This document shows positions 1,837 through 47,600 of a stretch of 64,000 bases of DNA, one piece after another. The DNA lies in contig JAYRXE010000033.1 in the NCBI GenBank assembly GCA_041917695.1, positions 38,490-102,489 on the forward strand, in the 5' to 3' direction. How positions within the stretch are numbered: position 1 is the stretch's first letter; each line of letters opens with the position of its first letter. The position numbers and the translations under genes were made by a program. The notes under the pieces are model-generated. The model was not told the DNA's origin, searched no databases, and saw only the letters and a program-made list of their open reading frames with translations. This DNA comes from Minisyncoccota bacterium (GTDB lineage: Bacteria > Patescibacteriota > Minisyncoccia > UBA6257 > GWB1-50-10).

Positions 1837-4079
1837 GATTTTCACGCCTCTTTGGCGGGACTCTGAAAGGCAGTAACCCCTTTCGCTCCAATGTTTCCGC
1901 CACCGGAAAGGTGATGGTTCCGTAGGGATTGACGTGTCCGAATCGGCTCGGCCAGATGTATTTGAGGTCATCCTGGTTGAAATGTCGCCCGTCCGCCCGT
2001 TGTTGCTTGAGTAGTTCCTCAAAGTACGTCGTGTTCCAAAGAAGGACGGCGTTGGTCAGAATGGTCAGGCAGGACATCTGGTCGTTCTGATCCTCCGGCA
2101 TCGGAAAAGGCGGCCTTGATTGTTTCCAGTCGCAGGTGCGCGTCGGCGAAGGTTCGGATGGACTGTTCCGGAAGTTTCGTCATGTGGGCGATTCCCGCGA
2201 TGCCGAAATTGCCGCCGTGCGCCATCAGGGCGGCGAACAGGAGCGGGAGGTCTTCGCGCGAGGGGCGATGGTAATTCGCGATGTGGGTGAAGCAGGCAGA
2301 GAAGTTAGTCCATCCTTCAACCTCGATGAGGACTTCGGAAAGATCGACCAGCGGGAGGCGGTCGTCGATGAACGTTCGGAGCGACTCGACCGAGCCAGGC
2401 TCTTCATCGGCGTCGAGTCGGGCGAGCGACAAAACGCCGTCTTCGTCGAGCGAGACTTCCTTCCCGAGTTTGAGCGCGGCGTCCATCTCGATGACGACGG
2501 CGGCGAGTTCGCGGCCAAGCGACGCGAGGTGCGCGTCAGCCGATTGGGTAAGGTTCAGTTGCTTTCGGATTTCACCTCGCGTCTTCAGCCACCGGTCGGG
2601 CGGGATGAGGAAGGACGCCGGGTCCCGATACCGCCGCGCTCCTTCAACCCAGATGTTTCCGGACCGCAGGGCCAACCGCAATTCCCACAGAACGCACAGT
2701 TCATAGTATTTCTGGCTCGCGGCCTTGCCTTCCGGGAAAACCCACCGAATCCATTTTTCCGGAATGAATTCACGGGGCGGATTTTCAGGCATCCGTTCCT
2801 TTCCGTTTCCCCATGTCTTGACGACCACCTTGATGGCGCGAAGAAGCGGGGCGTAATCTGGGGAACACCGCCAGGTGAAGGACGCAAGAAACCGGCGGCT
2901 GAACTGGCGCAGGACACCGAATTTTCCGGCAATCAGATCCGCCGGCCATTCGTTGCGGGGGCGCTGTTCGGCGTCGCATTGGGCGACCGCCCGCATCAGA
3001 AGTTCGCGGGGAACGACGCCGAAAACCGACTGCCTGACTTCGGGATCCGGAATTTCCCCGTTGAGCAGGACGCGCGCGACCTGGCCGAGCAGCCGGTTGC
3101 GTTCGTGACCGCTCCGGGCCGCGGATTGACGCAGGTCCTCGAAATCCCGTTCCGCATTGTTTTGAACGTCGGCCAGACAGCGGTCGAACTGATCCATCAC
3201 GGTGTCGAGCATTTCAGCCAGCGTCTCGACCAGAAAAGCGATGAGCGTCGGGAATCGGGTTTCATCCGGCATGCGCTCGAGACGTTGGTTGGAGGCGTAG
3301 TTGGCAAACCGGGCAAGGAGCTTGATCCGGTTCGGGTGGAAGGCGTTCAAATCCCAGCTTTCGACGCCAATTTCGCGGACCTGGTCGATCTTGTCCAGGG
3401 TCTCGTTGATGGTTTTAGACTTGGACGCCACCGCCCCGGCGCCGATCCAGGCCAGCGGGGAACGACCGTGCGGGGTTGGTGTTTTCACCAGACGGTTGAG
3501 CGTGTCCCGTAAATCCGGCGTCAACCAGGGCTCGACGGCTCGCCAGGTTCTGGCCTCGGCTTCCATGCGCGCCGCCGAAACATCTCGTTCAAGCAGACTG
3601 ATACCCGGACGGAGCAGTTTCAGGTGACGAAGCCGCTCGATCAGGGCATTGAGCAACAAAATGGGCCGGTCATGTTCCATCGCCCGGTCGGTCAGCCAGA
3701 CGAACAGGTTGTATCGATCCTCGGGCGTCGTGCGACGGAATCCGAGGGCCAGGACAGCCTGTTGTTCGTGATCGCTGCGTGTCCGGGCGTTGCGTCCATA
3801 GTCCCCGAGAGCCTCCGGATCAATTGCGAGCTGGTGGGCCAAAAACCGGAGGGCCGTCCCTGGAATCCCCCGGGGAGATTCGGGGAAAAACCCAAGGAAT
3901 CGCAGGCCGCACAATGAGACGGCGAAACCAAGGCGGTTGTCGTCGCCACGCCGCTCGGCCACGAGTTCGCGATCCGTTTCGGAAAGCGTGAAATGTTCGG
4001 CGAGATCCGAATCGGTCACCGTTTCGGGCCATTGACCAAGCAGGTCACGTTCGATTTCGGTGAGCCATTGAACGGGCAT
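1832..4079 (-). pseudogene. tnpA: Tn3-family transposase TnpA lacking most of the DDE core through a ~300-aa internal deletion/frameshift
   Basis: The 686-aa ORF starts MPVQWLTEIERDLLGQW...RRGDDNRLGFAVSLCGLRFLG (Tn3 TnpA N-terminus) and runs through ...GIAGIAHMTKLPEQSIRTFADAHL. The frame then breaks near 2020-2100. A separate 89-aa ORF carries the C-terminal ...LTILTNAVLLWNTTYFEELL...GHVNPYGTITF. The total of ~750 aa is below the ~990 aa of intact TnpA. Confidence 0.8.
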
Positions 4080-5072: not shown

Positions 5073-5795
5073 TTATTCTTCTTTAGGAAGATGTAAAAAT
5101 TGCCAATAAAAGCGTTTAGTTTGGACCGGTGCTGTGCTTTGGATAGTTGTTTGGGCAAAGAATTTTTTTAAAGTGGTCATCTTAACTTTTCTAGTTAAAC
5201 AAGTCACCCATAAAGCATTTCCTTGGCTAATAGCAAATTTGTTCAGAATTTCACGAACAGTAATATTTTCTTCTTGTATGAAAATTTTCTTTTCTGAGAA
5301 AAAATCGTCATCAGGATTGCCATACCCACAGCTACCTACCCTAACTCCTTCAATAAAGTCACGAAGACCACAGCTAGCAAAGATTAGATTTTCTGGATGA
5401 AACATCTGATATTTATCGATTGTAATATTTAAAAAATTTTCATCGCTGTTAACAATTTCATACGAAAAAATATTAACAATTTTATCTTGAACAGAAATTC
5501 CAAGCTTTTCCCCATGACTTATTATTTCGTTAAGAATAAATTCTACTGACTGATTTTCAAAACTAATCGGAGAAACTTTTTTTTGATCATCCGATAGCCA
5601 TTCAATTCCAACAGGTAATTTCGAAGCCTGACAAAGCTCAATAATTTGCTCTAGTGAAGAATCGGAAGCCGAAGAAAACTTTGCCAACTTTCTTTTAAGA
5701 ATAGTTTTACAAGAATTTTCTTGCCCCGTAGCCCCATTGCTAAAAAAAATATTAATTAGCACCATCAAAGTCATTCCAAAAATAAGCTTTTTCAT
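5073..5795 (-). CDS. Secreted hypothetical protein, AT-rich foreign gene
   Basis: Signal peptide MKKLIFGMTLMVLINIFFSNGATG. GC ~30%. No known motif. Confidence 0.5.
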   Translation of the reverse strand: MKKLIFGMTLMVLINIFFSNGATGQENSCKTILKRKLAKFSSASDSSLEQIIELCQASKLPVGIEWLSDDQKKVSPISFENQSVEFILNEIISHGEKLGISVQDKIVNIFSYEIVNSDENFLNITIDKYQMFHPENLIFASCGLRDFIEGVRVGSCGYGNPDDDFFSEKKIFIQEENITVREILNKFAISQGNALWVTCLTRKVKMTTLKKFFAQTTIQSTAPVQTKRFYWQFLHLPKEE

Positions 5796-6247: not shown

Positions 6248-6670
6248 TCAGACCTGGGACCAGTCGAGCGGGATGAATTCGGAGATTTTGGCGAAATCCT
6301 TGGCGTTGACCGTCAGGAGCTTCAGTCCGCGTCGGGCGATGCTCGCCGCAAGCAAAGTATCGTTGGTCAGCCGGGCACGACCAATGAGTTCGTAGCCGTA
6401 CTTCTCGCCGATCTTGCCGAGGACGTTTCCAGCAAGCGTCCAGTCGGAAAGGATGGGAACGAGCAGGCGGCCGATCTTGTCGAAATCATGCTCGAACTTC
6501 TCAAGCTTTTTGCGAAGGGCAGGGTCGGCCCCGGTGTAAAGTTCTTCCAGCACAACCGCGCTCAACCAGAGCGGCGACTGGACCGAGAAACGTCGCTGAC
6601 CGAGCAGGGCGAGGTTCCCGCCACGCAAAGCGGTGATGTAAACCGATGTATCGAGGACGGTTCCGGCCAC
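6248..6670 (-). CDS. vapC: PIN-domain toxin VapC
   Basis: LDTSVYI near the N-terminus and a conserved DTLLAASIA acidic motif. 140 aa. Lies directly downstream of a small antitoxin ORF. Confidence 0.8.
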   Translation of the reverse strand: MAGTVLDTSVYITALRGGNLALLGQRRFSVQSPLWLSAVVLEELYTGADPALRKKLEKFEHDFDKIGRLLVPILSDWTLAGNVLGKIGEKYGYELIGRARLTNDTLLAASIARRGLKLLTVNAKDFAKISEFIPLDWSQV

Positions 6671-8028: not shown

Positions 8029-8844
8029 TTGAAAACAAAGCTCGTCAAAGTCACCCCCAAACTCGCCGCCCAATGGCTCGCAACCAATCATTCCAATCGC
8101 CCGATAAGCCGCGCTTTCGTCGAGGAACTGTCGCGATCTCTGATTGCCGGCACTTTTCAAACAACGCACCAGGGAATCGCCTTCGACGAACAGGGCCGAC
8201 TCCGGGATGGACAGCACCGCCTGACCGCCATCCTCGAAACCAGCATTTCCATTGAACTCCTCGTCACCACCGGGTTGACCGAGCAGGAGTTGCTGGCCAT
8301 CGACGACGGACGCCGACGCACGATTCATCAGGTTTTGACGATGGTCGACGCCGGCGCTTCCTTCTTTTCCTCTGCCATCGCCAAGGAAATGTTGATCGGG
8401 GGCCATCACCTGGCCACTCGCTCCAAACCGGTCAAACCGGGGCGGCAGGAACTCATCGAATTCTTCAACGCTCATGTCCAGGCCATCGGGTTCGCTGTAA
8501 AACGCTTCGGGAAACCGTCTTCCGGATTTCAAATCGGATATATCGGGGCGGTGATCGCCCGTGCCTGGTACTCGGCCGACCGCGAGCGGCTCGAACATTT
8601 CGCAACCGTACTGGTCACTGGCTTTCCGAAACCAGGAGACGAATCCATCATCCGGTTGCGGAATCACGTATTGACGGCGCGAAGGGAGAAGATTCGAAAT
8701 CGGGGTTTTCGGGACGAAATTTACGCCAAAACCCAGCGAACACTGGCCGACTGGCTCGCGGGTGTCGAATCTCACAAGCTGGAATCCACACGCGAAGAAT
8801 TGTTCTCAATTCCGCCCCTGAGTCGTGAATTGACTTCGGAGTAG
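8029..8844 (+). CDS. ParB/Srx-fold nuclease-like protein with a DGQHR motif
   Basis: Contains RDGQHRLTAILE (ParB/DndB-like DGQHR box). Integrase-adjacent. Confidence 0.45.
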   Translation: MKTKLVKVTPKLAAQWLATNHSNRPISRAFVEELSRSLIAGTFQTTHQGIAFDEQGRLRDGQHRLTAILETSISIELLVTTGLTEQELLAIDDGRRRTIHQVLTMVDAGASFFSSAIAKEMLIGGHHLATRSKPVKPGRQELIEFFNAHVQAIGFAVKRFGKPSSGFQIGYIGAVIARAWYSADRERLEHFATVLVTGFPKPGDESIIRLRNHVLTARREKIRNRGFRDEIYAKTQRTLADWLAGVESHKLESTREELFSIPPLSRELTSE

Positions 8845-9337
8845 GGATTGAGGATACCTCAAAATGACCGAATGGTGTGTTTTGTCGCGATTACTGGGGA
8901 ACACCAAGAACTCTCCCCGCTGCCGGGAGAAGAAAGTCCGATCAGCCCCAAAGCAACAAAAAGGACAAGAAGACGCCCGAAAAACAAGCCTAATAGCTAG
9001 AGAAATGTCCTTAGCGTCATGAATTGAATGAGGAAAATGGAAATTTGATCCTTAGCGTCTAAAAATGCGCGAATTCTTTCCCTACCCCGACACAAAAACC
9101 ACTTCCCAACTCTTTGGTGTTGCAAGAACCTGACTTTGGAGTCTATTTTCCGCATAAAGCGGAATCAAAGCTGCCCTATGTTAATTGCCGATGAGAACTA
9201 TTGAAGGTGCAACCACTAAAGACTTCCCTTCGGTAACCGTCTCGAAAGGGCAAGTAACCGGTTTGATTAGTAATAAAAATTAGGACAATCCTGAAAAACC
9301 CGACAAACTAAGAATTTTTAAATCAAGTAGGAGATTC

Positions 9338-12300
9338 ATGAAACTTTCAATTCTACATTTAAGTGACATTCACTTTAAAAATAACGGAATAAATTTTGTA
9401 AGTGAGAAAATCGAACAAATTGCAAGTGCAGTAGACGCAAATCTATTTCTTCAAAGCAGTGAGGTTTTGCTCATTGTTGTTACTGGTGATATAGCATTTT
9501 CAGGTAAAGTAGAAGAATATAACTTGGCAAAATCATTTTTTAATCGTCTTGAGAATTTACTGATTGAAAAATGCAAATTTGAGAAAATAGTAAAAGTAAC
9601 AGTTCCAGGCAACCATGATTGCGATTTTTCAAATAAAGAAACAACTTTAAGAGAAATGGTTTTATCAGATTTCCAAAAAAATTTGAAAGACCAGAAGAAA
9701 GTCGCTGAAGCAGTTAATTTCAGCACGAAAATTCAAGAAAACTACTTTGCATTTGAAGGAGAAATTGAAGGCACAGAGAATGAATTCCATTACTTGGCAA
9801 AATCAAGAAAAGTAAGTCACGGAAATTTTAATATTGAAATTAGAAAGTTCAACACTGCTTGGTGCTCAATGAGAAATGAGAATCAAGGCGGTCTCATATT
9901 TCCAGTTGGTTCACTTAATGAAATAAATTTTTCAGAAAATGCTGATCTGGTTATTTCACTTTTTCATCATCCCTATAATTGGCTTGAATCAAATAATTCA
10001 CGAGATTTCAAAAAATATATCGAGAAAAATTCCGACATAGTTTTAACCGGGCATGAACATATCGCTGACAATTATCAAAAACGCGGATATAAGGGCGAGG
10101 AACTCACATATATTGAAGGAGGTGTTTTACAAGATGGGAGCAAAAACAACAGTGCCTTTAACTTCATAAATATTGACCTCATGGAGAAAGCATTTTCTTT
10201 TAAACAAATGCTTTTTGTAGACGAGAGTTACCAAGAAGAAGATGTAAATGAAAAATGGATTGAATTTAAAAGAAACCCTCACCGATCAACCAACAATTTT
10301 ATTTTTACTCAAGAATTCGAAGCATTTCTCAAAGAACTAGGCATTGGTTTAACGCATAAAAAGAGAGAAGAAATATTTCTTGATGATTTATTTATCTTTC
10401 CAAACTTTGAAAAAAGAAAAATTAGTAAGAAGAATTTTAGCTTTAACAATGTAGAAATTGAGGGGAAAAAAATATTTGACGAGATAATTGAGGAAAAAAC
10501 ACTAATAATAAATGGAGAAGATAGCTCAGGAAAAACAACATTGGCAAAAAAGCTGATATTGGGATTAAATAAAGAGTTTGGATTTGTATCGGTGATGATC
10601 TCCGCTAAAATTATTTTTCAACTTAAAAATAATCAAATTAAAGAGAATATAGTCAGAGAGCTTGTCGAAAAACAATTCAAAAAACAATACAACAGGGATC
10701 AATTTGAAAAGTTTAAAAATCTTTCTTCGGACAAGAAAGTGATTATTATTGATGACCTTGATTTTGGACTTGGGAATTTAGAGAGGTTTTATCAGATTAT
10801 TCCCTTCTTGAAAAAGTCATTTGAAACAATATTAATTTTCTCAACAAAATATTTTGAATTAGGTGACTTGGTAATACACGCGCCCGAAAAGAACCCATTT
10901 TTCGGATTCACTCCTTTAGAAATTAAACCATTTGGACACTTATTGAGATCTAAATTGATCTCAAAATGGATTGATCTAGATTCTGATGAAATTTCTAGTA
11001 CTGACCGAGTTTACAAACAAAATAACCTTGAAAACACAATTACTGCCTTAATCAAGGAAGACATTTTACCATCTTACCCATTTGTTATTCTAACTCTACT
11101 CCAAAACTCCGAATTATCTAATAACCAGATAAACTCTTCTGGAACATATGCACATCTGTATACAGCATTAATTAATGCCTCACTTTTTCGTGAAAATTCC
11201 GATCCGGCACAAATAAGCATTAAGCTATCATTTCTCAGTTTTCTAGCATTTAGAATGTTTACTTATAAAACAGATTTTCTTTCTGAAGACCAAGTAACCA
11301 TTGTGATAGATGAGTTTAAAAATCGCTTTCATGTTACCTTCACCGAAGAGATGCTTAGAACACTGGAAAAATCAAAAATCCTGGAGAAGAGAAGTGAAGG
11401 TTTCAAGTTTGTGTATAGATACTGCTACTACTATTTCGTTGCCCAATACTTCCATGCAAATATTAGAAACAACGTAAATTCTGAACTGAAAAACATCCTT
11501 TTCAAAATGGTTAGCAAGACTTACTTTGATGACTATTTTCAAATTATATTGTTCTACATTTATCTTTCAACTGATCTTGAAGTGATTGATCGACTTATTC
11601 AAGAATCTGATACTTTTTTCACATCGTATAGTCAGTTTGACTTCAAAAACGACTTTTCTTTTATCAACGGAATCCTAAATAAACAGTTAGAAAAAGAGAC
11701 GCCAGTCCTTAATACAAATAATTCGATTAGCGATAACAGGGATAATCATCACAAGGAGCTAGATAAGCAAAAGAAAGAAGAGGATTCATCTTTAATAAAG
11801 CTAAGATCTGTTGACACCAATGAGCAGGAGTTTGAAATAAATGAACTATTAAAGGTTAATCTTTCACTTAGAAAGATTGACCTCCTGGGTCAAATTTTGA
11901 AAAATTTCCAAGGTTCAATTGAAGGTGACCTAAAAATTAAGATAACGACCTCGGCTTACTCCCTCGGACTTCGACTCTTAAAATATATCTTCACTTCATT
12001 TGAACAAAACTTCGATATCTATAAGGAATTTGTATCTTCCTTTGTAAACATGATTCTTCCGGATGAGAGTGAAACTAGAAGGAACGAACTGATTAACAAA
12101 TATATTATTTACTTTATGTCTCGCTGGTCTCATGGGATTGTGAAACGGTTATCTACTTCTTGTGGACATGAACAATTAAAAATGACCTATGAGGAGATTC
12201 AAAAACTCAGCAATAAGTCTAAAAATGAAATTCCCATAGCAGTTTCACTAATTCAACTTTCAATAAAATTAGATCATTTTAAGGGTACTCCGTTAGATGA

Positions 12301-12508
12301 AATGAAAAGGTTAAAAAATGATCTGAAGAATAATCCCTTTGCTAATCAAATATTACGTCAGCTTGTATATGACTATCTGTACTTATTCCCCTGTGAGGGT
12401 AGATTAGTACAACAAATTTCTGCTCACTTTGATATTAGACTTAATACTCATAAAGGGCTTCCGGATGGCCTTGTAAAGGAACAAAAATCCCAAAAAAAGC
12501 TTAGTTGA
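9338..12508 (+). CDS. Calcineurin-like metallophosphoesterase fused to a P-loop NTPase (STAND/AAA-like) with a ~500-aa helical C-terminus. Candidate single-gene defence/conflict protein; AT-rich.
   Basis: Phosphoesterase motifs LHLSDIHF, VTGDIAFSG, PGNHD, LFHHPYNW and TGHEH. Walker A INGEDSSGKTTLAKK. Walker B KVIIIDDLD followed by ILIFSTK. GC ~30%. AGGAG RBS. Confidence 0.65.
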   Translation: MKLSILHLSDIHFKNNGINFVSEKIEQIASAVDANLFLQSSEVLLIVVTGDIAFSGKVEEYNLAKSFFNRLENLLIEKCKFEKIVKVTVPGNHDCDFSNKETTLREMVLSDFQKNLKDQKKVAEAVNFSTKIQENYFAFEGEIEGTENEFHYLAKSRKVSHGNFNIEIRKFNTAWCSMRNENQGGLIFPVGSLNEINFSENADLVISLFHHPYNWLESNNSRDFKKYIEKNSDIVLTGHEHIADNYQKRGYKGEELTYIEGGVLQDGSKNNSAFNFINIDLMEKAFSFKQMLFVDESYQEEDVNEKWIEFKRNPHRSTNNFIFTQEFEAFLKELGIGLTHKKREEIFLDDLFIFPNFEKRKISKKNFSFNNVEIEGKKIFDEIIEEKTLIINGEDSSGKTTLAKKLILGLNKEFGFVSVMISAKIIFQLKNNQIKENIVRELVEKQFKKQYNRDQFEKFKNLSSDKKVIIIDDLDFGLGNLERFYQIIPFLKKSFETILIFSTKYFELGDLVIHAPEKNPFFGFTPLEIKPFGHLLRSKLISKWIDLDSDEISSTDRVYKQNNLENTITALIKEDILPSYPFVILTLLQNSELSNNQINSSGTYAHLYTALINASLFRENSDPAQISIKLSFLSFLAFRMFTYKTDFLSEDQVTIVIDEFKNRFHVTFTEEMLRTLEKSKILEKRSEGFKFVYRYCYYYFVAQYFHANIRNNVNSELKNILFKMVSKTYFDDYFQIILFYIYLSTDLEVIDRLIQESDTFFTSYSQFDFKNDFSFINGILNKQLEKETPVLNTNNSISDNRDNHHKELDKQKKEEDSSLIKLRSVDTNEQEFEINELLKVNLSLRKIDLLGQILKNFQGSIEGDLKIKITTSAYSLGLRLLKYIFTSFEQNFDIYKEFVSSFVNMILPDESETRRNELINKYIIYFMSRWSHGIVKRLSTSCGHEQLKMTYEEIQKLSNKSKNEIPIAVSLIQLSIKLDHFKGTPLDEMKRLKNDLKNNPFANQILRQLVYDYLYLFPCEGRLVQQISAHFDIRLNTHKGLPDGLVKEQKSQKKLS

Positions 12509-12736
12509 ACAGCTTTTAACCCTTTTGTTCTGAATAAGTTTGCTCGATTTCGATATTCATCTTTCAACAGAAGAATATATCTTTTAAAACGCCCTGATCG
12601 AAGCCCCCGCCTTCTCAGAGTCCGGCGCTTTGGAACGTGCCTCCGCCGCGCACTTCCCGTCGGTCTCCTCTTTTTCAGGAAAGTTCCCTCGATTCAGGAT
12701 TTTTGTTCGCACCCTGTCGATTCCCGTAGCTCATTC

Positions 12737-13157
12737 ATGGCCAGAACCAAGTCAGTTAAAGACACCACCGCTAACCTCGGCTTCGAAGCGAAACTGTGGC
12801 TCGCCGCCGACAAGCTCCGCAACAACATGGACGCGGCGGAGTACAAGCACGTCGTCCTCGGTCTCATCTTCCTGAAGTACATTTCGGATTCCTTCGCGGA
12901 GAACGTCTTCTGGGTCCTAAAAGAAGCCCGGTGGTCTGAGCTTCGGGCGAACGCCAAGCGGCCGACCATCGGGAAAATCGTGGATGTGGATGACGCGATG
13001 GTCTCCCTTGAGCGGGACAATATCAGGCTCAAGGGAGTACTTCCGAAGGATTACGCCCGGCCCGCGCACGACAAGCACCGGCTCGGCGAACTGATCGACC
13101 TGATTGGGACCATCGGCCTCGGCGACGCTGCCAACCGCGCCCAGGACATCCTCGGTC
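12737..13157 (+). pseudogene. hsdM: Type I restriction-modification methyltransferase HsdM, N-terminal ~140 aa only
   Basis: [25 protein letters not shown]...[28 protein letters not shown]...[12 protein letters not shown]...[15 protein letters not shown]...DILGR is the canonical HsdM N-terminus. The frame diverges after DILGR. Confidence 0.8.
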
Positions 13158-13337
13158 GCACAGGTTCGCAAGAGCGTCACCATCGACTGGACACTTCGGG
13201 AAAGCACCCGCGCCCAGATCAAGGTACGGGTGAAGCGGATCCTCAACAAGTACGGGTATCCGCCCGACTTGCAGGCCAAAGCCACGCAAACCGTCCTGAA
13301 ACAGGCGGAATTGCTCTCGGCAATGTGGTCAATTTGA
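13158..13337 (+). pseudogene. hsdR: Type I restriction enzyme HsdR, extreme C-terminal fragment fused to the hsdM fragment (deletion scar)
   Basis: [52 protein letters not shown] is the conserved HsdR C-terminal tail. It starts at the point where the HsdM frame breaks. Confidence 0.7.
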
Positions 13338-13366: not shown

Positions 13367-13900
13367 ATGAAAACCAAATCTTATTTCTCCGTTGCATTCC
13401 TCATTCTGCCTTTTTTAACCATACCCGTTTTGAATATTTCACTTTCCGCGGCTAAGGCCCCTGCTGTCGCAGCGAACAGGACCGATACCGGACAAAAAGA
13501 GGAAGAAGACAAACTGTTTCCATATCCCATTCCTTTGGATCTTCCCATCCCGAAAAATTCCGAACGCCTTGGTCGTTCTTTTCAGTTTCAAACCCTCAGC
13601 TACACATTTGGATGTACTCAAAGCAGTTCCGATGTCATTACTTTCTATCGAGACCAACTACCGAAACTCGGATGGAAAACGACCGTGACTTCAGCAAGCG
13701 AAAATAAATTCGGTCCAATCCAAGTTCTTTCCGGCAAAAAAGAGGAGGAAGGTCTAAGAAAATCCTGTGAACTTACAATTGGACCAGTCACCCCCGGAAC
13801 TACCAAGGGTGGGGAATCCAGGGTCTCCAATCCCCCGTTTCAAAGCTATGTGAACATCAGGTACTCAGACCCTGCTCTTGTAGCTAAACCTGTAAACTGA
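13367..13900 (+). CDS. Secreted hypothetical protein
   Basis: ATG at 13367, [31 protein letters not shown] signal peptide. Lower GC than the flanks. Confidence 0.45.
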
Positions 13901-14079: not shown

Positions 14080-14859
14080 ATGGCTATGCTGAATAATCCA
14101 GACATCAATAGTCATTCACTACCTTGGGTGGATTATGATCAGGCCAACAAAATTATGGGCACGCTCTCCGATCTATTGACTTACCCCAAACAACGGAGAA
14201 TGCCATGCCTTTTCATCTCTGGGCCTGAAAGCAATGGTAAATCCGCCCTCATTTCACGTTTTTCCGAAGTCTACCCACCCCGAGCAGGTCGAAATCAGCC
14301 GCCGCTCCTTTGCTGTGAACTCCCGGAGAGACCCACCGAATCGAAGTTTTACGATTGCGTGTTGAGCGCGATGTGTCCCTCGATGAAGCTGCCCAGATCG
14401 GCTTCTGAAAAAGAGTACATGGTCCGCTCGATGCTTGATTCCACGGGCGTTGAAATGTTGTTCATTGATGCCTTTGAACGAATTCTCACTGCTCGCCCCC
14501 TGGATCGACGGGTACTTCTCAACGTCCTCAAGGTGGTAATCAACTTGACTGAGGTGATTGTTGTCGCCGTCGGAAGGCCGGATTCCGCCGACTTCCTTTT
14601 TGAAAATGACGAGATGTGTTCAAGGTTTCACCCGGTCGAGCTGCCGCTGTGGGAGGAAGGCGACGCCTATGTTCGGCTGTTTGCCGATCTTGAACGGGCC
14701 TCTGCGGCTCAATCAGGAAAGCAGCCATTTACGAATGATCCATTGGTTGCCGCTTCCTTGAGGTCTCGGGTACTTCAGATTACTGGTGGGCGGATTGGAG
14801 AGATCTCCAGGCTTGTATCTCTGGGCGGAGACCTGCTCGATTTTTTGGAAGGAAACTGA
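14080..14859 (+). CDS. tniB: TniB-type AAA+ transposition ATPase (Tn5053/Tn402-family); orphan with no adjacent tniA
   Basis: YPKQRRMPCLFISGPESNGKS aligns with TniB HPRIHRMPNLLIVGETNNGKT. MLFIDAFERIL...LLNVLKVV...VVAVG aligns with MLIIDEIHHIL...FLNVLKYL...IVGVG. CSRFHPVELPLW aligns with ANRFEPAVLPKW. GRIGEISRLV aligns with GTIGEMAKLL. Confidence 0.75.
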   Translation: MAMLNNPDINSHSLPWVDYDQANKIMGTLSDLLTYPKQRRMPCLFISGPESNGKSALISRFSEVYPPRAGRNQPPLLCCELPERPTESKFYDCVLSAMCPSMKLPRSASEKEYMVRSMLDSTGVEMLFIDAFERILTARPLDRRVLLNVLKVVINLTEVIVVAVGRPDSADFLFENDEMCSRFHPVELPLWEEGDAYVRLFADLERASAAQSGKQPFTNDPLVAASLRSRVLQITGGRIGEISRLVSLGGDLLDFLEGN

Positions 14860-15363: not shown

Positions 15364-15813
15364 TTAGTAAATTATCCCGTCTAATCTATACTGTTCAATT
15401 TTGACTTTAATTTTTTTAAACTCGTCGAATAAATAAGCTTCGAAAATAGAACTGTCCGTTCTTTTATTTTTGTAAAATTGTCTCAGATCGTGTACCGCAT
15501 AACACCAAAGGATTGCAACAACAACACAACCAAAAACCAAGAGAGAGAGGGCAAGGCACATGAGTGGGAGCATCAGTTCATTTCTCAGCCTATAACTTTC
15601 CAAAATAAAAAGAAAAATTGAAAGACTTAATAGTGTTGAAGCATTATAAAAGAATACCTTTTTATACTTCAAGCAATGGAAAATTTTTCTTTTCTCAAGA
15701 AAATTAACAAAGGTTTGAATTTCATTGATATCAAAATCAACAAAATTCTTGTGGAAGAATCCTCTCTTTAAAACACCTTGTTCGAAAATTTCATATTCAA
15801 ACATCTTAATCAC
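15364..15813 (-). CDS. Small membrane protein, AT-rich foreign gene
   Basis: Two hydrophobic helices (LLSLSIFLFILESY, LMCLALSLLVFGCVVVAILWCY). GC ~30%. Confidence 0.4.
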   Translation of the reverse strand: MIKMFEYEIFEQGVLKRGFFHKNFVDFDINEIQTFVNFLEKRKIFHCLKYKKVFFYNASTLLSLSIFLFILESYRLRNELMLPLMCLALSLLVFGCVVVAILWCYAVHDLRQFYKNKRTDSSIFEAYLFDEFKKIKVKIEQYRLDGIIY

Positions 15814-16017: not shown

Positions 16018-17931
16018 TCATTCACGGTCCACAAGAAAATTTCTTTCTAGCATGAAGCGATACATCTCTTCGGCATCGGCAAATTCGCACCAAACCGGTT
16101 TCCCGACGAATTCGATGGCGCAAAAAAGGCCAGTCTTCAGATTCAGCACGAACAGTTCCTCTCCATTCTGACCAAAGTAAATAAAGTCCCGTGAAAAATA
16201 CTCATTCAAATTTTGGTTCGCCTGTTGGATGGTTTCCTCAAAATCCGGTTCGGGTTTAATTGGCCAGATGGTCATCCCATCGAAATAAAAACCGTTCGTC
16301 TTCCTCAGAATTCGTTTGTAGGCATCCGGGAAGGGCTGGCCGAAGGCTTTGCTGAACCTGGTCTCAGCCAAAAGGATCTCTTCCTCGGTGCAGGGGCTGG
16401 GCTGGGCTTTCTCCCCCCATTCCGCCAGTTTCAGTTTCATAGCTTCAATTAACTCTTCAATCGACATAGCATCCGGAACACCCTCATCTGAAATGGGTTC
16501 AGCGGGATTCGCTACTACCTCGATGTTCAGGTGATACGCCTCGGCCACCGACTCAAGCAGCGCCCTTTCCTGTTCACTCACGCCCTTCTTGAACTCGGCC
16601 ATGATTTCCTCCTTGAGGGTTTCGAGGCTGCCGCGCTCGCGGCCCCGGAAATCGACCGTAACCGGCTTTCCTTCAAGGCGTGCGCGGACAAAGTCCTCGC
16701 CGGCACGCTTCGCCTGGGGACAATCGAAGCCGTTCCGGTAAATAACCCGCAATGCCAATTCCCTGAAGCGTTCGTTCGGCATGCGTTGGGCAATTGACCA
16801 CCGGATTTCGCCGGCAAGCGCATTATGAAAACTCCTGACGTCGTCCTGAGCGGCGTTCAGGTCGGAGAAGAAATCGCCTGAGTTATCGCCCGAGTACAGG
16901 CTCGAATCAAGATCGAGGTGATCGAGGGCTGGAAACTCACCGTTCAATCCTTCCATGAATAGCTTGATCCCCTTCTCGGCAATCAACTTGAGGTTCTGGC
17001 GAACGATACCTTTCCTCTCTTCAGGGAATTGGGCTTTCTCGGCTTTCAGGACGAACGGTGGTTCTCCTGGCCGCCGACTGACGAAAATGGGCCGATTCAG
17101 ATTCTCTCCACGCAGGTAGCCAGTCAGGTCCCGCTCAAGGAGTAACCACAACTGCCTTCCGGTCGATTCCGTTCGCGCGAGGACCGCCGGCTGCTGGTAC
17201 TTGTCGTCGTGCGCTCGATGCGAAATCAGGACGGCGAATTTCACTTCCGACGAGCCGGCTCGAACCGGCGTCAGTTCGTCGAGGGCGCCGACATCTTCCC
17301 TTTTTACGAACCGCTTCAGCGCGGCCTCAATCAATTTCGGGCTCGCGTCCCGCATTCGTTTGAAGAGTTCGATTGTCATTCGGACGTCGGCGCCGGCATC
17401 GTGTGCCTGCGAATCGTCGATCCCGTTCTCGACCGCCATCGCCCCCAACTTGAAGGTGGGCGTCCCGTCTTCCCGTGTCGGAAACTTCAGGGCCTTTGGC
17501 GCGAAGATTTTGAAAAGGGGGAGCATCGGAAGCACGTCCGCTCGACCGCACCCGTTGGCCCACTGGTGGGAGTACGGGTCGAGCAGGTTACGGTAAAACA
17601 GAAACCGCGACACCTGGTCATCGAATTGAAAAGAGTTGTAGCCAATGCTGATCGTATACGGTCGGTTGAATTCCTGGTGGATGCGGCAGGCAGCTTCGTA
17701 CTCGGTGATGCCGGTTCCAAGAACCTCTGGCGTCAGCCCCGTGACCTTCAGCGAAACGAGCGACGGAACGACATCGGGGCGTAACCTGATTCGAAACGAA
17801 TCCGCTCCGGTTTCCTCACCCGCCGCGCCAAGACGCACGGAAGCGAACTGGACCGGTTGATCGAAGACAACGTTCAGTCCGGTTGTTTCGTAGTCGTAGA
17901 AAAGGAACTGCTTCGAGGCTTGCGTCATCAT
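16018..17931 (-). CDS. sbcB: Exonuclease I (SbcB-like DEDDh 3'-5' ssDNA exonuclease) with a C-terminal SUKH/SMI1-KNR4-like domain
   Basis: FLFYDYETTGLNVVFDQPVQFASVR matches ExoI FLFHDYETFG..LDRPAQFAAIR. GYNSFQFDDQVSRFLFYRNLLDPY and SQAHDAGADV match the Exo II and III motifs. The ~150-aa tail FPDAYKRILRKTNGFYF...IYFGQNGEELFVL fits the SUKH pattern. Confidence 0.8.
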   Translation of the reverse strand: MMTQASKQFLFYDYETTGLNVVFDQPVQFASVRLGAAGEETGADSFRIRLRPDVVPSLVSLKVTGLTPEVLGTGITEYEAACRIHQEFNRPYTISIGYNSFQFDDQVSRFLFYRNLLDPYSHQWANGCGRADVLPMLPLFKIFAPKALKFPTREDGTPTFKLGAMAVENGIDDSQAHDAGADVRMTIELFKRMRDASPKLIEAALKRFVKREDVGALDELTPVRAGSSEVKFAVLISHRAHDDKYQQPAVLARTESTGRQLWLLLERDLTGYLRGENLNRPIFVSRRPGEPPFVLKAEKAQFPEERKGIVRQNLKLIAEKGIKLFMEGLNGEFPALDHLDLDSSLYSGDNSGDFFSDLNAAQDDVRSFHNALAGEIRWSIAQRMPNERFRELALRVIYRNGFDCPQAKRAGEDFVRARLEGKPVTVDFRGRERGSLETLKEEIMAEFKKGVSEQERALLESVAEAYHLNIEVVANPAEPISDEGVPDAMSIEELIEAMKLKLAEWGEKAQPSPCTEEEILLAETRFSKAFGQPFPDAYKRILRKTNGFYFDGMTIWPIKPEPDFEETIQQANQNLNEYFSRDFIYFGQNGEELFVLNLKTGLFCAIEFVGKPVWCEFADAEEMYRFMLERNFLVDRE

Positions 17932-41664: not shown

Positions 41665-44600
41665 CTACATACCCCAACCCAAATCATGAAAACTCGGTTT
41701 AGGTTTTTCTGTCTTTTTCTCCCGTTCAAACCGTGCCGGATAGTCTTGTGTTTCCACGCCGACGAGGGCCCCTGAAGTGGGTTTGAATTCTCCGTGACTC
41801 ACGCTCTCGCCCCGATAGATTGCGGCCTCGATCCGCTTCCTTCCGAAACCGGTATCGGCGAGAACTCCGGCAAGAGCTTCCGGACGAAGATGGTTCGATA
41901 CTTGCAAACCTGCCTGGCCGTTCAAGGTTTCGATCACCCGAATTTGTCCCGCCATCTTTTCCAGCATCGACGTTGCCTGGTTTCTCAGCTTGGTGAATTC
42001 CCCATAGGTCAGCTTTCCTTTCTGAGCGCTCTCGACGAAGTTTCGAGTCAGGTTTTTCACTTCCACCGGGGCTGGTTCCGCTTGAGTCTGGGGCGAAGCC
42101 AGTTCATCCAAAATCTCCTTGGTGACCACAAAGAGTTCCGCCGGCTTGATTGCCGCCAGCTTCTCCAGCACCCTGGCATGGACGGGAGCTTCCTCCATGA
42201 GGCTGATCTCCGACCGGCTCATACATGCCCGCGCGACCTTCTCGGTTCCCATCAAGGTTCGCGCGGTGGCTTGAATCCCGCTCGCAGGATCGCCGTTGTT
42301 GGCCCACTTCTTGAGCGCGGCGAGCGGGTCGCTTCCTTGTCGGGACAGGAGAATCCTTCCCTCGGCTTCCGATTTCGGAAGGGAGGTCACCCCTTGTTTA
42401 CAAAGAATATCGGCTGAACTTCGGGTGAGGGGAAGGTCGGCTACATCCGCCAATTTCCGGATCACCTGGCTGTTTTCACTGACCGGCGCTTTCGGGAACG
42501 CCTGCTGGAACTTGATGGCAGCCTTTTCTATCCGGTGGTTGATCTCATTGGCGACTTGTACCGCCACGGCCTTCCAGGTCTCGGTCGCTTCCGGCGAAAA
42601 TTCCCCCTCCGCCAGAACCCAACCCATTTCCTTGAGTGTTTTCGCGCAATGTTTCGGTGCGGTCGGGGCCACTCCGATCGCGTTCTCTATAGCGGTCGCC
42701 ATCCGGGATGCCATTGTCCGCCGTTCGTCCAGTTCCTTGGACATTTCTTGAAACGACTGGTGCCATTCCGATTCGAGGTTCTGGGCGGCTTCAATCTGGG
42801 CAGGCGTTTTTGCCGATTTCAAAAATGCTTCAATGTCTTTGCTTGACCACGGTCGTTGAGGACTGGTCAGAAGACCAAAAGCACCCTCAAGGTTACTCTG
42901 TACTTCTGGTTTGACCTGAATCAGGACCTCCGATTCGTTCAACTGGGAAACCAGGTAATCCCCGGTGAATCGGTTCGTTTCGCGCAGTGCTTCAAGCCGC
43001 CCGATAACCTCTTCAGGCATTTCCTGCTTGATGTCGATTTTCTGCGCCAACTTGTCAAACGCTTCGGAATCCTGTTTTTCAGCGGCATCCAAAAGCGTTC
43101 TGGCATACCGGCGGTTGAGTGGGTCGGCGCAGGATTCCAAAGCCGGATGGTAGGCCGGAGAATTCCAGCGAGTCGCAGTTTCCGCGGCTTTCAGCAACAT
43201 CTGGATTTCCGGCTCGGCTTCCTCTAGCTCTCTGGCGATCAGGACGTGACGGGCCAGCGCTTTCTCAATATCCAAACCTTGGGGCAAATCCCGCTCGACC
43301 GAAGCATCCGCGAAAGTGAAGACCTGCTCCCTGATTTCCTTTGGGGAAATAAAGTCGTTTCGGGTACGCATCCGGAATGATTGCCTGTCGATAATGTCGC
43401 TGCTCCGGGTTAAACGATTTTCCAGATCCCGCAAAACCGAAAAGGCCGGGTCACTCACCTTGAGGTTTGCAAGGTCGTTCCCAAATGCCTTGATATCCGA
43501 GTCTTCGGCCTCAACGTCTGTTTTGGTGAAAGTTTCTTCGCCTTCATAAACGATTGATTCTCTCTCCACGGTGATAATTACGCCGTCGCGCAGCACGTCG
43601 TAACCGGATTCCCGTAAAAATCCGCTCACGGCTTTGCCCATGCCGGTTCCGCTTGCCTGGTAGTACGTGGAAATTTCTGAAGCCGATGGGTTGGTTTTCG
43701 GATCGAAAACCCTTCTTGGCGAGAGAGCGACGAGACGGTAATCCTCTCCGTCAATCATATCCGAGGCATCCGTTATGACCCGGTATCCGAGCGGCCGATT
43801 GGGTCCAACATCGGCCTTGGGAACGATGACTCTTTCCACCGGGATTTGGAACGTCTCGGCTTTTTTCAATGCTCCAGCGTAGACGCTTTCAGGTTTCGCC
43901 CCGAGTTCAACCATCTGGCGTCGTAAGTCCAGAAGTGTTGCATGGGGATTGATGGAACTATTCCGACGCTCGAAATAGGCATCCATCTGTTCGAACGTCG
44001 CTGGCGCCTGTTCACGGCGGGTTCTGGACTCGTCGGCCAAAACAAACGGAAGTCGCTCTTTTTGAACCTCTGAAACTTGCGCGCCGGCTTTACTGAAGAA
44101 CGCAGTCAATTTTTCAGCGAGCCCCTCGAATTGAACTTCCCGAACCCGGTTCTCGATGACCGTCACCGGCATAAAGCCAACGATCAGTCCCTCATTTTCA
44201 GGGACCGCCGGTTCAACCGGGATCGGGGTGGTCTCCGCCGAAGTGCTGAAACTCCCATTGATCTCGCCTTCCGTGAATTGAACTGGTTGTTCAACGTCAC
44301 TTCTGGTTCGTTCCCCTTCCGTTTGGTTGGGAACAACCTCCAGGACTTTGGCGGTTTCGATGATTGATTGGGCCGAGACCGGAAGGACCTCTTTTCCAAG
44401 TTCCAGGGCGACCTCCGCCCCGAACACGAAGTTCTGCATCTCCGTCGCCTGACCATAGTTCTCATCCGCGAATCTGCATTCCCAGTTTCCGTTCAACCCT
44501 TCCAGTTGAACCGTCTCACCAACCTTGTTCGAATCCCGAACCTTTCCTCCGAGCAAGGTTTCAATTTCGTCAAAGGATTCCATCAAGGCCTCGTCGAGTC

Positions 44601-47600
44601 CTTCCCGTATCCGGAGTGCCTGAAGGGCAACCTGTTTGCCGGCGAGGGCGGTTTCCATGATTTGGCCTTCAAGTGGGCGGATGGTGACAAGTGCGTACCC
44701 CATCAGTGATTCATAAGGGTCGGCAAAATATTCTGTGACCGCCCCAAAAGTTGTGCCACGTTCGGTCCCGTAACCGGATTGACTGATGGCCCGGCCGGTT
44801 TCGTTCGCCTGCGCCCCGTCCAGCCCGATCTTGACGACATTTGCCACGAAGGTTTTTCCCGTCGGTGCGGGAGACAACTTCAACTGATCCTCCAGCCCTT
44901 GAATGGAATCCGGGTGGGAAAAATCACCGACCCCGATCAAAGCGCTATGCGTTTGGGGTGTCAGGAATTTGGCTATCCTTGCGGCGGTGCGCGAGTTCTC
45001 CAGGCTGTCATCAGAAATCATTTGAACCAGGATGATTTTTGAAACTCGAAATTCCTCGCTCTGACCTTCCGCGTGGATGAAATGGGCCGGCAGACCGGGT
45101 TCGACTTTTTCGACTTCTGGAGTTGCTGACTTGATTTCGGTTTCAACCCGAACTTCTCGCGCATTCACTTCCGACACATCGAGCCTGTTTGCGGGGGCTG
45201 CGCTCGTTTCTCCGACTGGTGGCACCAAGCCGTTCTTGAATGCCTCGATGGTGACGAACGATTCCCCCTCGAACATCCACCTGGCCGACCATCCGGATTT
45301 GTAATCCACGGCGGTCCGGGTCTGATTCACACGACCGAATTTTTCCCGAGTCGTGTCGGTGATGAAATCATAGACGCTCTTGTGAACCACGTAGCGCTGG
45401 AGACCTGAATAAGCCGAATCTCGGCTCTCTCCAAGCAAAATTCGGAGATTTTTATCAGGGCTTTCAAGCACGACCAGGTTGGTTCGTTGCTGCGAAGGCG
45501 TTTGACTGCTGATCTCCGGTTCGGGTTCAATTCCCGAATTCGGCGACCTGCTTTCAAGCAATGTGGTCAGTGGAGCTTCGACTCCTTGAGGCCCAGGCGT
45601 TTCTTTTACCCGAGTCACGTTTTCACTTACTGGGGCGACAGGTTCTGCGGGGGTGGTCTGAACCGGTTCCAAATCGTCTGAAACATCCGACGCCTGTCCG
45701 GCCTTCTCACGCCTGACCTTTTCCACGAAATTCCGATAAAGGCTCGTCGTCAACCCCGTTCGATATACATTCTCCACATAGTCTCTCCCGTTGTACCGGG
45801 CAATTTTTGCTTGACCATCCAGTTCCGGGCGTTTGTCACCCCGTTTATTGATTTGGATTTTCAGCTCGCTCAATTCGTTTCGAGCATCTTCAAGCTCTTG
45901 GGACTGGGGAAACTCTTTCAAACGGGTAATCGTTTCGTCGCCATTCTGGATTTCCTCGTAGATGGCAGATCGAAGCGTATCCCGCCGCCGTTCAAATACG
46001 TCTTTCATTGAGGCATTTTTTTCGAGTTCACGCTTGATGGCCGTCAGTTCGAGGTTGGCAATCCTGAACAGTTCTTCCGGTTGTTCCTGGTTAAAGATGA
46101 GATGCCGTTGCCGGCCCTCAAAGTCGATGACGAGGATTCTTTGGGGGAGTTCAAGTGCGTACTCCTCGATACTGGCAATTCGTCCTCCCCGATACTTCCC
46201 GATCAAGACGAACCCCGACTCATTGCGTAAAACGGCCTGGCTTTGACGTTCGACGATGTAGGCCCCGGCTTCTTTCTTGTTTGACATGACTTCCCCATCG
46301 GGAAGTGAGAACTCGAATTCCTTGGTTTCCGATTCGTCGATCAATCTGGTCAATTCATTGAGCCGCGTGCCCTTTTCTCCCAGATCACGTAGCTCACGTT
46401 CCGCACTGGCAATCTCCCATTGGGTTGTGGATCGCCATCGGTTAAACGCTTTGGCCTTTCTTTCCAGTGCCTCGACCTCGACCTGCTTCTCGTGGGCTTG
46501 GAGAGCGAGGGTATCCCGGCTGGCGATAGCCGCAATTTGCTCGGCGGTCAGGTCATCTTCAGAAACGTCAAACGTCATTGGCGCGTTTTCGACATCCGAC
46601 CTGACCCATCCCATGAACTCACTGATGATTTCCGACTTGTTGCCAAGGTATTTTGCAAAGAAGTCGTCAACCCCTTCCTTGACGACGCGAACTACCTGTA
46701 CCGCTTCGTTCTCATTCCCCGGACGTACTCCCCGACCGACGCATTGAATTTCGTTTCGGGGCGTATATCCGTTGTGAAGGAGATACTGGGCAATGACCTT
46801 CTTTTGAACGTTTGTTCCGGTTCCCAATCTTGCGGTTGATCCTATGGCAACAATGGCGTCACCATCATTCAGGCGCTGTTGCGCGCGGATCCGCTCTTCG
46901 TCGCCCGTAATGTTTGAAAAATTGAGGACCTTGTTTTTCGGGATGCCTTTCTGCTCCAGGAGGCGGATCAGATCCTCGACCGCGCTGATGCCTTTCTGAT
47001 TGGGATGGACTCCGAAATCGGTGAAAACCAGTTGGACCTTGTTCGGGTATTCCGACGCCATCGAGACAATCATGTCGGCGGTCATTTCAATTTTCCCATT
47101 CGGGTTGGGAATGATGTCGTCCCGATACAGCAGGTTCGTATGCACCGAAATCTGCTTTAACTCATTCACCAGCCGCATGCGCTCACCGGTTGTATCCCTG
47201 CCCAAATTTCTTGCCTTTTGAGCAATTTCATTCAAGAGGAATTCCTCGTACTCGGTAATGGGGGATACCGCAACGATGGTTTGAGCCTTGGGTGGGTTCA
47301 GGTCGGCAGCCGTGCCGGGGCCGAAAGTGACAAACGATTTTGCCCAACGAACGAGGTCCGGAATCGAGTCATACCCACGAACCCTGGTCTGGACCTTCAT
47401 CCCGTCCATCGTTCGTTCGAGCCGCCCTGAAACCCGAAGGAAGTTATTGACGAAGCCCTGAAGGTTGTCGGCCCCAGGGGGCATCATGTCGAGCATTTTC
47501 CCCCAATTGAAAATTTCTACCGCGGTATTCACGATGGGGGTCGCGGTCATCAGGACGGTTCTGTGATTTGCCCCTCCTTCAACACATTGGCGGTACAGGA

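Follow-up and report, generated by a model that had tools for sequence, protein, structure and literature searches.

A probable divergent ortholog of the anti-phage protein DS-8 in a mosaic of mobile-element and defence remnants of a Minisyncoccota bacterium

We analysed a 64,000-nt stretch of the Minisyncoccota bacterium assembly GCA_041917695.1 (contig JAYRXE010000033.1, positions 38,490 to 102,489 of the forward strand), referred to below as the window, and within it an AT-rich gene at 9338–12508 on the forward strand. As judged from its sequence, this gene very probably encodes an intact, divergent (~30% identity) ortholog of DS-8, an NLR-like/STAND, stand-alone anti-phage protein with a metallophosphatase as its N-terminal effector. 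The predicted protein scored 836.3 bits against the NCBIfam equivalog NF053861 'DS8_antiphage' (curated cutoff 790), and the match ran from end to end, with residues 7–1033 covering positions 1–994 of the 994 in the profile. Both models of the PADLOC candidate single-gene system PDC-S60 were also matched, PDLC05050 over residues 298–1036 (E = 1.3e-69) and PDLC05051 over residues 4–869 (E = 4e-25); all PADLOC matches reported here are E-values of family hidden Markov models (HMMs) alone, taken without PADLOC's own thresholds or system rules. We regard the annotation as settled: this is a DS-8 family anti-phage gene, and neither a repair enzyme nor an artefact. The original prediction, whose author had only the sequence, had named a candidate single-gene defence system of effector-NTPase-sensor layout and reached the correct functional class. 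The novelty implied by the word candidate did not hold, as DS-8 had already been named, modelled by an HMM and validated, and the window copy is a new divergent member of it.

DS-8 was validated experimentally in Escherichia coli in the DefensePredictor study (Science 2026, PMC13092281). It is a single protein of 1014 aa (WP_032203427.1) with a metallophosphatase and a NACHT domain, and it lowers phage plating; phage protection has been demonstrated for this E. coli protein only (PMC13092281). The D52A, N84A and K375A substitutions each abolish defence, which depends on the metallophosphatase as well as on the NTPase (PMC13092281). Our direct comparison covered the first 399 residues of WP_032203427.1 (Table S8, PMC13092281), which aligned with the window protein at 29% identity (E = 2e-42). 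In this alignment D52, N84 and K375 of the E. coli protein correspond to D51, N92 and K399 of the window protein. A literature search on PDC-S60, nSTAND4 and metallophosphoesterase-STAND combinations returned nothing beyond the DefensePredictor paper.

The open reading frame (ORF) is intact, with an ATG start and 1056 codons in the ORF list and its translation, and a Shine-Dalgarno sequence, AGGAG, can be read 4 nt 5' of the ATG. At the gene's own base composition, 1056 stop-free codons would arise by chance with P ~10^-38.6, and the remaining five frames of the same stretch hold 50–138 stops each. Since so long a stop-free run is improbable by chance and the other frames are full of stops, the ORF is not the codon-usage artefact that the original prediction had allowed for. 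The gene, its domains and its immediate surroundings are as follows.

9338..12508, + strand: DS-8 family gene (ORF list, translation, NF053861, PDC-S60, dN/dS)
9329..9333, + strand: Shine-Dalgarno sequence AGGAG (sequence reading)
9338..10240, + strand: N-terminal metallophosphoesterase domain, residues 1–301 (Pfam Metallophos, invariant motifs, fold matches)
10241..10492, + strand: linker, residues 302–385 (BLASTP start of the homology with TIR relatives, AlphaFold2 secondary structure)
10493..10927, + strand: P-loop NTPase core, residues 386–530 (Pfam AAA_22, conserved Walker residues, fold matches)
10928..11467, + strand: helical and winged-helix part of the predicted STAND module, residues 531–710 (AlphaFold2 model, conserved peptide)
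11468..12505, + strand: C-terminal all-helical domain, residues 711–1056 (AlphaFold2 model, per-domain identity)
9093..9254, + strand: degenerate 3' remnant of an upstream gene (tblastn with an ORF of the related Logan contig L002)
12509..12595, + strand: AT-rich 3' untranslated tail (sequence and 50-nt GC profile)
12737..13337, + strand: type I restriction-modification deletion scar, context outside the DS-8 gene (Pfam HsdM_N, three-frame translation)

Searching for homologs gave 1120 significant clusters; almost all are 1017–1065 aa long and 28–34% identical to the window protein, and carry PF00149 together with PF24406 (nSTAND_NTPase4). The motifs listed by the original prediction are all in place. 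The five metallophosphoesterase motifs are LSDIH at residue 8, TGDIA at 49, GNHD at 91, FHHP at 209 and GHEH at 238, which supply D10-x-H12, G50-D51, G91-N92-H93-D94, H210-H211 and G238-H239-x-H241. Walker A (GEDSSGKTT) occupies residues 393–401 (10514–10540) and Walker B (IIIDDLD) residues 469–475 (10742–10762). Across a 36-member alignment of the family, D10, H12, G50, D51, G91-N92-H93-D94, H210, H211, G238, H239, H241, G398, D472 and R537 are invariant, so that the metal ligands and the NTPase residues G398 and D472 are kept in every member; the Walker A lysine, K399, is conserved in at least 90% of them.

Pfam Metallophos matched residues 4–242 (E = 2.8e-12). In an AlphaFold2 model built on the family alignment (mean predicted local distance difference test score 82.9, predicted template modelling score 0.68), residues 1 to ~301 form an alpha/beta metallophosphatase with a beta-rich extension. 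Foldseek matches of this domain in the PDB were Rv0805, Lmo2642, SMPDL3B, UshA and Vps29. The top Foldseek match of the model overall was PDB 9a6c_B (E = 1.6e-13, 575 aligned columns), which is Bacillus subtilis YydB in an integrative YydD-YydB model. On this modelled likeness, YydB/YydD might be a split relative, a metallophosphatase plus a partner; a literature search on this lead gave nothing usable.

For the central NTPase, Pfam AAA_22 matched residues 387–500 with 27.7 bits, just over its cutoff of 27, and the scores for NACHT (16.9 bits, cutoff 26.7), nSTAND3 (17.8, cutoff 27.2) and NB-ARC (15.6, cutoff 23.5) fell below theirs. PF24406, which most homologs carry, was not reported for the window protein. 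Because NACHT is sub-threshold and nSTAND_NTPase4 is not reported, the STAND assignment rests on the homologs and on the fold. Foldseek matches of the NTPase module in the PDB were NLRP3, NLRP9, NOD2, NAIP5, NLRP14, Avs4 (8dgf), EfAvs5 (9jap) and ORC/Cdc6, with E-values of 7e-7 to 5e-4 for NLRP3, NLRP9, NOD2, NAIP5, Avs4 and Avs5. As modelled, the NTPase is NLR/STAND-like by fold. The following part of the predicted STAND module, residues 531–710, consists of helices and a beta-hairpin (682–691) in the model and holds the invariant R537 and the motif FKFVYRYCYYYFVAQY; its pattern [YH]xY[YCF][YF]F[VA]A[RK][YH] is one of the two most conserved peptides of the family. The Pfam nSTAND_NTPase4 domain of a TIR-fused relative, described below, maps to this same region.

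From about residue 534 to its end the modelled protein is mostly helical, in agreement with the ~500-aa helical C-terminal region of the original prediction, and no Pfam repeat family, TPR or other, was detected in it. Residues 711–1056 are presumed to be a sensing or assembly domain. Within them, the DS-8 family is most strongly conserved over residues 836–1035 (nt ~11843–12442), with a mean pairwise identity of 38.6% as against 31.2% for the NTPase. A C-terminal motif, ~LLGQxLRNFxGSxxGDxK, lies at residues 848–866, and D809, G851, K866, R879 and G943 are invariant. This conservation points to a role in assembly or to a trigger that is itself conserved, and not to an arms-race sensor.

The N-terminus can be exchanged within the family. 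Residues 311–1035 of the window protein matched a TIR-domain protein present on three Vibrio parahaemolyticus plasmids (BLASTP, 26% identity, E = 1e-44, starting at residue 311); TIR proteins encoded by plasmids of Lactococcus and Streptococcus were matched more weakly. In the Vibrio protein TIR_2 spans residues 7–108 and nSTAND_NTPase4 is also present, and the protein matches PDLC05050 at 9e-97. The homology with the TIR-fused relatives thus begins in the linker, at about residue 311. One NTPase and C-terminal chassis thus carries either a TIR domain or a metallophosphatase at its N-terminus, which is the usual signature of an exchangeable effector in STAND defence proteins. This swap supports the metallophosphatase as the output of the system and the N-terminus as its effector slot. 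On plasmid pVPHB2014-1 the Vibrio TIR gene (L083:3947-7160) lies 1 nt downstream of a 196-aa hypothetical gene without a Pfam match, adjoins a recombinase and has an anti-restriction gene nearby; the 196-aa gene may serve as a partner of the TIR variant only.

The chemistry of the effector admits two readings. It is about an even bet that the substrate class is a nucleotide-type small molecule, the candidates including an essential nucleotide, NAD or another dinucleotide, and a cyclic nucleotide; a nucleic acid, the main rival class, is possible and on the unlikely side. The corresponding alternative for the whole protein keeps the family and changes the chemistry: the metallophosphatase would be an Mre11/SbcD-like nuclease that degrades phage DNA, host DNA or both, like the nuclease effectors of Avs proteins. 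We consider this rival possible, if doubtful. Nucleases are the commonest effectors of STAND defence proteins. NCBIfam sbcD matched residues 4–95 (E = 4.5e-5), a PDB sequence-profile search retrieved Thermotoga maritima SbcD, Mre11 and Lmo2642 at ~1e-3, and the generic metallophosphoesterase folds matched in a viral structure library (BFVD) included SbcD/Mre11-like exonucleases. However, GpdQ came first in the same profile search (1.4e-5), and all of its matches cover only the first ~90 residues, where the SbcD similarity is confined to the generic motifs I–III. No Mre11 or SbcD structure was found among the top 50 Foldseek PDB matches, which do contain Rv0805, Lmo2642, SMPDL3B, UshA and Vps29, and the domain that takes the place of the metallophosphatase, TIR, is a nucleotide-processing enzyme. 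For E. coli DS-8, HHpred gave SMPDL3B (5KAR) as best match and SMPDL3A was the structural match (PMC13092281). The authors of that study proposed a cyclic nucleotide as the substrate by analogy with SMPDL3A, and listed the metallophosphatase among domains not earlier validated in defence (PMC13092281). On the modelled fold, the metallophosphatase appears to resemble small-molecule phosphodiesterases more than Mre11, though not decisively.

The analogy to Avs and bNACHT proteins, taken with the exchange of metallophosphatase for TIR, suggests how DS-8 might work. At rest the protein would be autoinhibited and nucleotide-bound. Its helical C-terminal part would sense an infection cue, upon which the NTPase would drive a conformational switch or oligomerisation and so activate the clustered metallophosphatase domains. 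These would hydrolyse a phosphoester substrate and phage replication would stop, probably at the cell's cost, so that the infection is aborted. A more specific version, which we put forward tentatively and think rather unlikely, is that the DS-8 chassis does not recognise a variable phage protein but senses, in the manner of a guard, a conserved cue such as a factor of the host or a broad disturbance of the cell, which the strong conservation of its C-terminal domain across many phyla would suit, and that the metallophosphatase kills or arrests the cell by hydrolysing an essential or signalling nucleotide. If this were true, the effector chemistry would be one not described for NLR-like immunity. 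The exchange of metallophosphatase and TIR would then be a natural experiment for trigger and substrate, to which the divergent ortholog adds one more point of comparison.

Several observations weigh against an intact DS-8 ortholog with a STAND-type switch and a metallophosphatase effector. Identity to E. coli DS-8 and to the nearest full-length relatives is just 29–34%. The NACHT score is sub-threshold and nSTAND_NTPase4 is missing from the reported domains of the window protein. The high conservation of the C-terminal domain is unusual for a presumed STAND sensor and fits poorly with a rapidly evolving sensor of phage proteins. The evidence on the substrate is equivocal, with SbcD and Mre11 trailing GpdQ in the PDB profile search and SbcD-like nucleases present among the viral folds. 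A simple sigma-70 scan of the + strand found no promoter in the 494 nt upstream of the gene. Finally, the only close relative of the gene, on Logan contig L002 (ERR11260138, another sample), which is 89.5% identical to the window at the DNA level from 9093 to 12622 and whose protein is 94% identical, has lost 1 nt in a poly-A run after '...IEGKK' (L002:1440-1660; window ~10440–10480). The frameshift splits its DS-8 into ORFs of 382 and 637 aa; either the copies of this lineage decay, or the loss may be a homopolymer assembly error in a short Logan contig. We considered whether the two annotated ORFs of L002 (382 + 637 aa) represent a two-gene variant and rejected this, as they are one gene with a 1-nt loss in poly-A.

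The last two of these points bear on a second rival, in which the gene does no defence work in its host and is carried along as a passenger, silent or in decay, among the remnants of defence genes and mobile elements. A truncated Tn3 transposase, the hsdM/hsdR scar and the truncated remnant of an upstream gene lie around DS-8, a consensus promoter was not found, the sister copy is frameshifted, and AT-rich foreign DNA is often silenced. Against this, the 1056-codon ORF is intact behind a good Shine-Dalgarno sequence, all of the family-invariant residues are kept, and the L002 frameshift lies in a homopolymer run where it may be an assembly error. Between the window and L002 copies, synonymous divergence (dS) was 0.445 and nonsynonymous divergence (dN) 0.030, giving a dN/dS of 0.067 that is uniformly low across the metallophosphoesterase, NTPase and C-terminal parts. 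Because the ratio is this low at this dS in all parts, the whole protein has been under strong, long-term purifying selection; the gene has been kept in the lineage long enough to reach a dS of ~0.45. We consider the passenger explanation improbable and retain the DS-8 ortholog as a gene maintained by selection.

The DS-8 gene has a foreign composition, and it reached its present mosaic of mobile-element and defence remnants by horizontal transfer. Its GC content is 31.8% overall and 0.30–0.34 in its 500-nt windows, and outside the gene the window has a mean of 52.6%, with 50–56% in the chromosomal part. The original prediction had set a gene of ~30% GC in a host of ~60%. Its figure for the gene was close; ~60% describes only the adjoining mobile-element remnants (0.55–0.64), and the implied drop of ~30 points is in fact ~21. 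AT-richness is a trait of the family, since the DS-8 gene was more AT-rich than its surroundings in 73 of the 74 loci with enough flank (median -9 points), which is what frequent transfer would lead one to expect. With its -21 points the window copy lies close to the extreme of these loci.

The first ~18 kb of the window bear out the graveyard of the original prediction. They form a mosaic of a truncated Tn3-family transposase, a PIN toxin, a tyrosine recombinase, DS-8, the restriction-modification scar, TniB and an ExoI-like/SUKH fusion, together with further AT-rich single-ORF patches. The remainder is chromosomal, with a cluster resembling type II secretion and type IV pilus systems, a 4243-aa ORF and a sigma-54 activator. 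Directly downstream of DS-8 lies the hsdM/hsdR deletion scar, as predicted. Pfam HsdM_N matched residues 17–123 of the ORF starting at 12737 (E = 2e-17), the HsdM reading stops after 'DILGR' at ~13159, and a shifted frame at ~13155–13337 reads a typical HsdR C-terminal tail. An HsdM N-terminus is here joined out of frame to an HsdR C-terminal tail. In the same 387-aa 'HsdM' ORF, 13367–13900 on the + strand is probably a separate small gene, beginning at a Met at 13367 with a signal-peptide-like start; it shares the reading frame of the HsdM remnant and follows the scar.

Upstream, residues 36–89 of an ORF that is intact in L002 matched window positions 9093–9254 (tblastn, 52% identity, E = 1.5e-10). 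The two sequences diverge upstream of 9093, and a Logan contig identical to the window, L001, begins at 9059. Because the L002 homology ends at 9093 and L001 begins at 9059, the left junction looks like a breakpoint. At the right junction GC rises to ~70% at ~12596–12600, and the L002 homology runs across it to 12622. The original prediction had called the gene inserted, and this is borne out only in part: no flanking direct or inverted repeats above low-complexity chance, no target-site duplication and no tRNA gene were found, and Rfam gave no structured-RNA match in the window. An integron cassette and an IS-type insertion were considered and rejected, as the tyrosine recombinase scores far below integron-integrase cutoffs and flanking repeats are lacking. 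The sharp change of composition at both gene ends, and the start of L001 near the left junction, could also have come from a metagenome assembly chimera that joined an AT-rich gene to GC-rich flanks. This is very improbable, because L001 is 100% identical over 11.7 kb, across the right junction and the downstream genes, L002 from the other sample crosses both the right AT/GC junction and the upstream remnant of intermediate GC, and an NCBI contig of 120,489 bp carries the DS-8 protein together with the host type II secretion ATPase.

DS-8 relatives occur in at least 372 species-representative genomes, and their distribution across phyla is patchy; the relatives listed include members of Acidobacteriota, Verrucomicrobiota, Bacillota, Bacteroidota, Pseudomonadota, Myxococcota, Chloroflexota and lineages of the Candidate Phyla Radiation. 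Near-full-length copies (at least 80% of the query) were found on plasmids in five records, from Paenisporosarcina, three Clostridium botulinum plasmids and Jeotgalibaca. A phage-borne origin was looked for with tblastn against 50,697 phage records, without a match. DS-8 is a single gene with no obligatory partner, and in the window the upstream gene is just a remnant. No neighbour was conserved, in that no neighbour family was common to more than 8 of the 74 loci, and type I restriction-modification genes and integrases recur beside DS-8 in a handful of them. A hidden partner gene was considered and rejected, because the upstream ORF of L002, the gene upstream of the Vibrio TIR gene and the neighbour ORFs of the 74 loci are mutually unrelated.

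A further alternative, a housekeeping enzyme of DNA repair or nucleotide metabolism (SbcCD-type or CpdA-type) that merely resembles a conflict protein, draws on weak matches to sbcD and to cyclic-nucleotide phosphodiesterase folds and is effectively refuted by the full-length equivalog match to a validated anti-phage family, by the patchy distribution and the foreign composition in 73 of 74 loci, by the lack of an SbcC partner or any conserved neighbour in the 74 loci, by the absence of Mre11/SbcD from the top 50 PDB fold matches, and by the best SbcD model, TIGR00619, which matches residues 4–95 only and, at 23.4 bits, stays far under its cutoff of 77.65; the SbcCD-type homology that the original prediction had weighed is thus not borne out.

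The other parts of the mosaic can be described briefly. The Tn3-family transposase (2019–4079, - strand) is truncated after 78 of the 389 positions of its DDE domain. The PIN (VapC-like) toxin (6248–6670, - strand) has a likely antitoxin upstream, and the TniB ATPase (14080–14859, + strand) has no obvious TniA. The additional AT-rich patches hold a 327-aa protein that bears a signal peptide and the zincin motif HEIGH (558–1541, + strand), a 240-aa secreted-looking protein (5073–5795, - strand) and a 149-aa membrane protein (15364–15813, - strand); at 30–37% GC, none of the three had a match in Pfam, NCBIfam or PADLOC. Blocks of ~30% and ~60% GC alternate here within a ~52% GC chromosome, which is striking. 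In a 637-aa protein at 16018–17931 (- strand), a DEDDh domain like that of exonuclease I is fused to a SUKH/SMI1-KNR4 domain of immunity type at the C-terminus. This protein matched NCBIfam PRK11779 (E = 1.6e-59, below cutoff) and PADLOC 'RTasSbcB' (E = 3.2e-44), and its gene, too, may be related to conflict. A 271-aa ORF a short way upstream of the DS-8 region (8029–8844, + strand) contains an 'RDGQHRL' motif reminiscent of DGQHR/ParB-like domains and matched nothing in Pfam, NCBIfam or PADLOC; whether it is real is uncertain, as the opposite strand carries an overlapping ORF of 262 aa. In the chromosomal part, the 4243-aa ORF (41665–54396, - strand) stands beside the secretion and pilus-like cluster (two T2SSE ATPases, T2SSF and a secretin, 28–40 kb).

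What the window copy adds at the level of the family is modest. DS-8 is widespread, nearly always foreign in composition and independent of any partner gene; it has a chassis in common with TIR-fused proteins, and its C-terminus is unusually conserved. These points help to frame two questions, the trigger of DS-8 and the target of its metallophosphatase, neither of which the window copy answers.

Among known proteins, Rv0805, Lmo2642, GpdQ and SMPDL3A/B are the best solved-structure matches of the N-terminal domain and have in common with it the calcineurin-like fold and all metal-binding motifs. Unlike the window protein they are stand-alone enzymes without an NTPase switch, and their identity of 14–16% is too low for substrate inference. 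DS-9A has a homologous metallophosphatase (NCBIfam DS9_1_antiphage, E = 5.8e-17, residues 4–173), and its catalytic residues are required for defence (PMC13092281). DS-9, however, is a two-gene system without an NTPase and with a HAD phosphatase partner, and the window protein scores 61.7 bits against its cutoff of 420.

Like the bNACHT proteins and Avs1–5, the window protein has its effector at the N-terminus, a STAND NTPase in the centre and a helical region towards the C-terminus, all in one chain, and bNACHT01 was found by HHblits to be the nearest known defence homolog of DS-8 (PMC13092281). It differs from Avs and NLR proteins in that no PADLOC Avs or NLR model was matched, Pfam NACHT is sub-threshold and the effector is a metallophosphatase; without matches to the PADLOC Avs models or to Pfam TPR, the likeness to Avs is only a distant one of fold, to Avs4. 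In addition, the C-terminal domain is the best-conserved part of DS-8 and not the most variable.

Another relative is the PDC-S60 TIR member of V. parahaemolyticus, WP_159404407.1, in which the chassis is the one aligned above (residues 311–1035, 26% identity, E = 1e-44) and which likewise matches PDLC05050. The N-terminus is a metallophosphatase in the window protein and a TIR domain in the Vibrio protein, and the overlapping upstream 196-aa gene of the Vibrio TIR gene has no counterpart at the window DS-8. From E. coli DS-8 itself the window protein differs in sequence (~29% identity over the comparable part) and in its host, a bacterium of ~52% GC that is not E. coli. In both, a single gene encodes a protein of ~1014–1056 aa with a metallophosphatase at its N-terminus, a NACHT-like P-loop NTPase after it and helices at the C-terminus.

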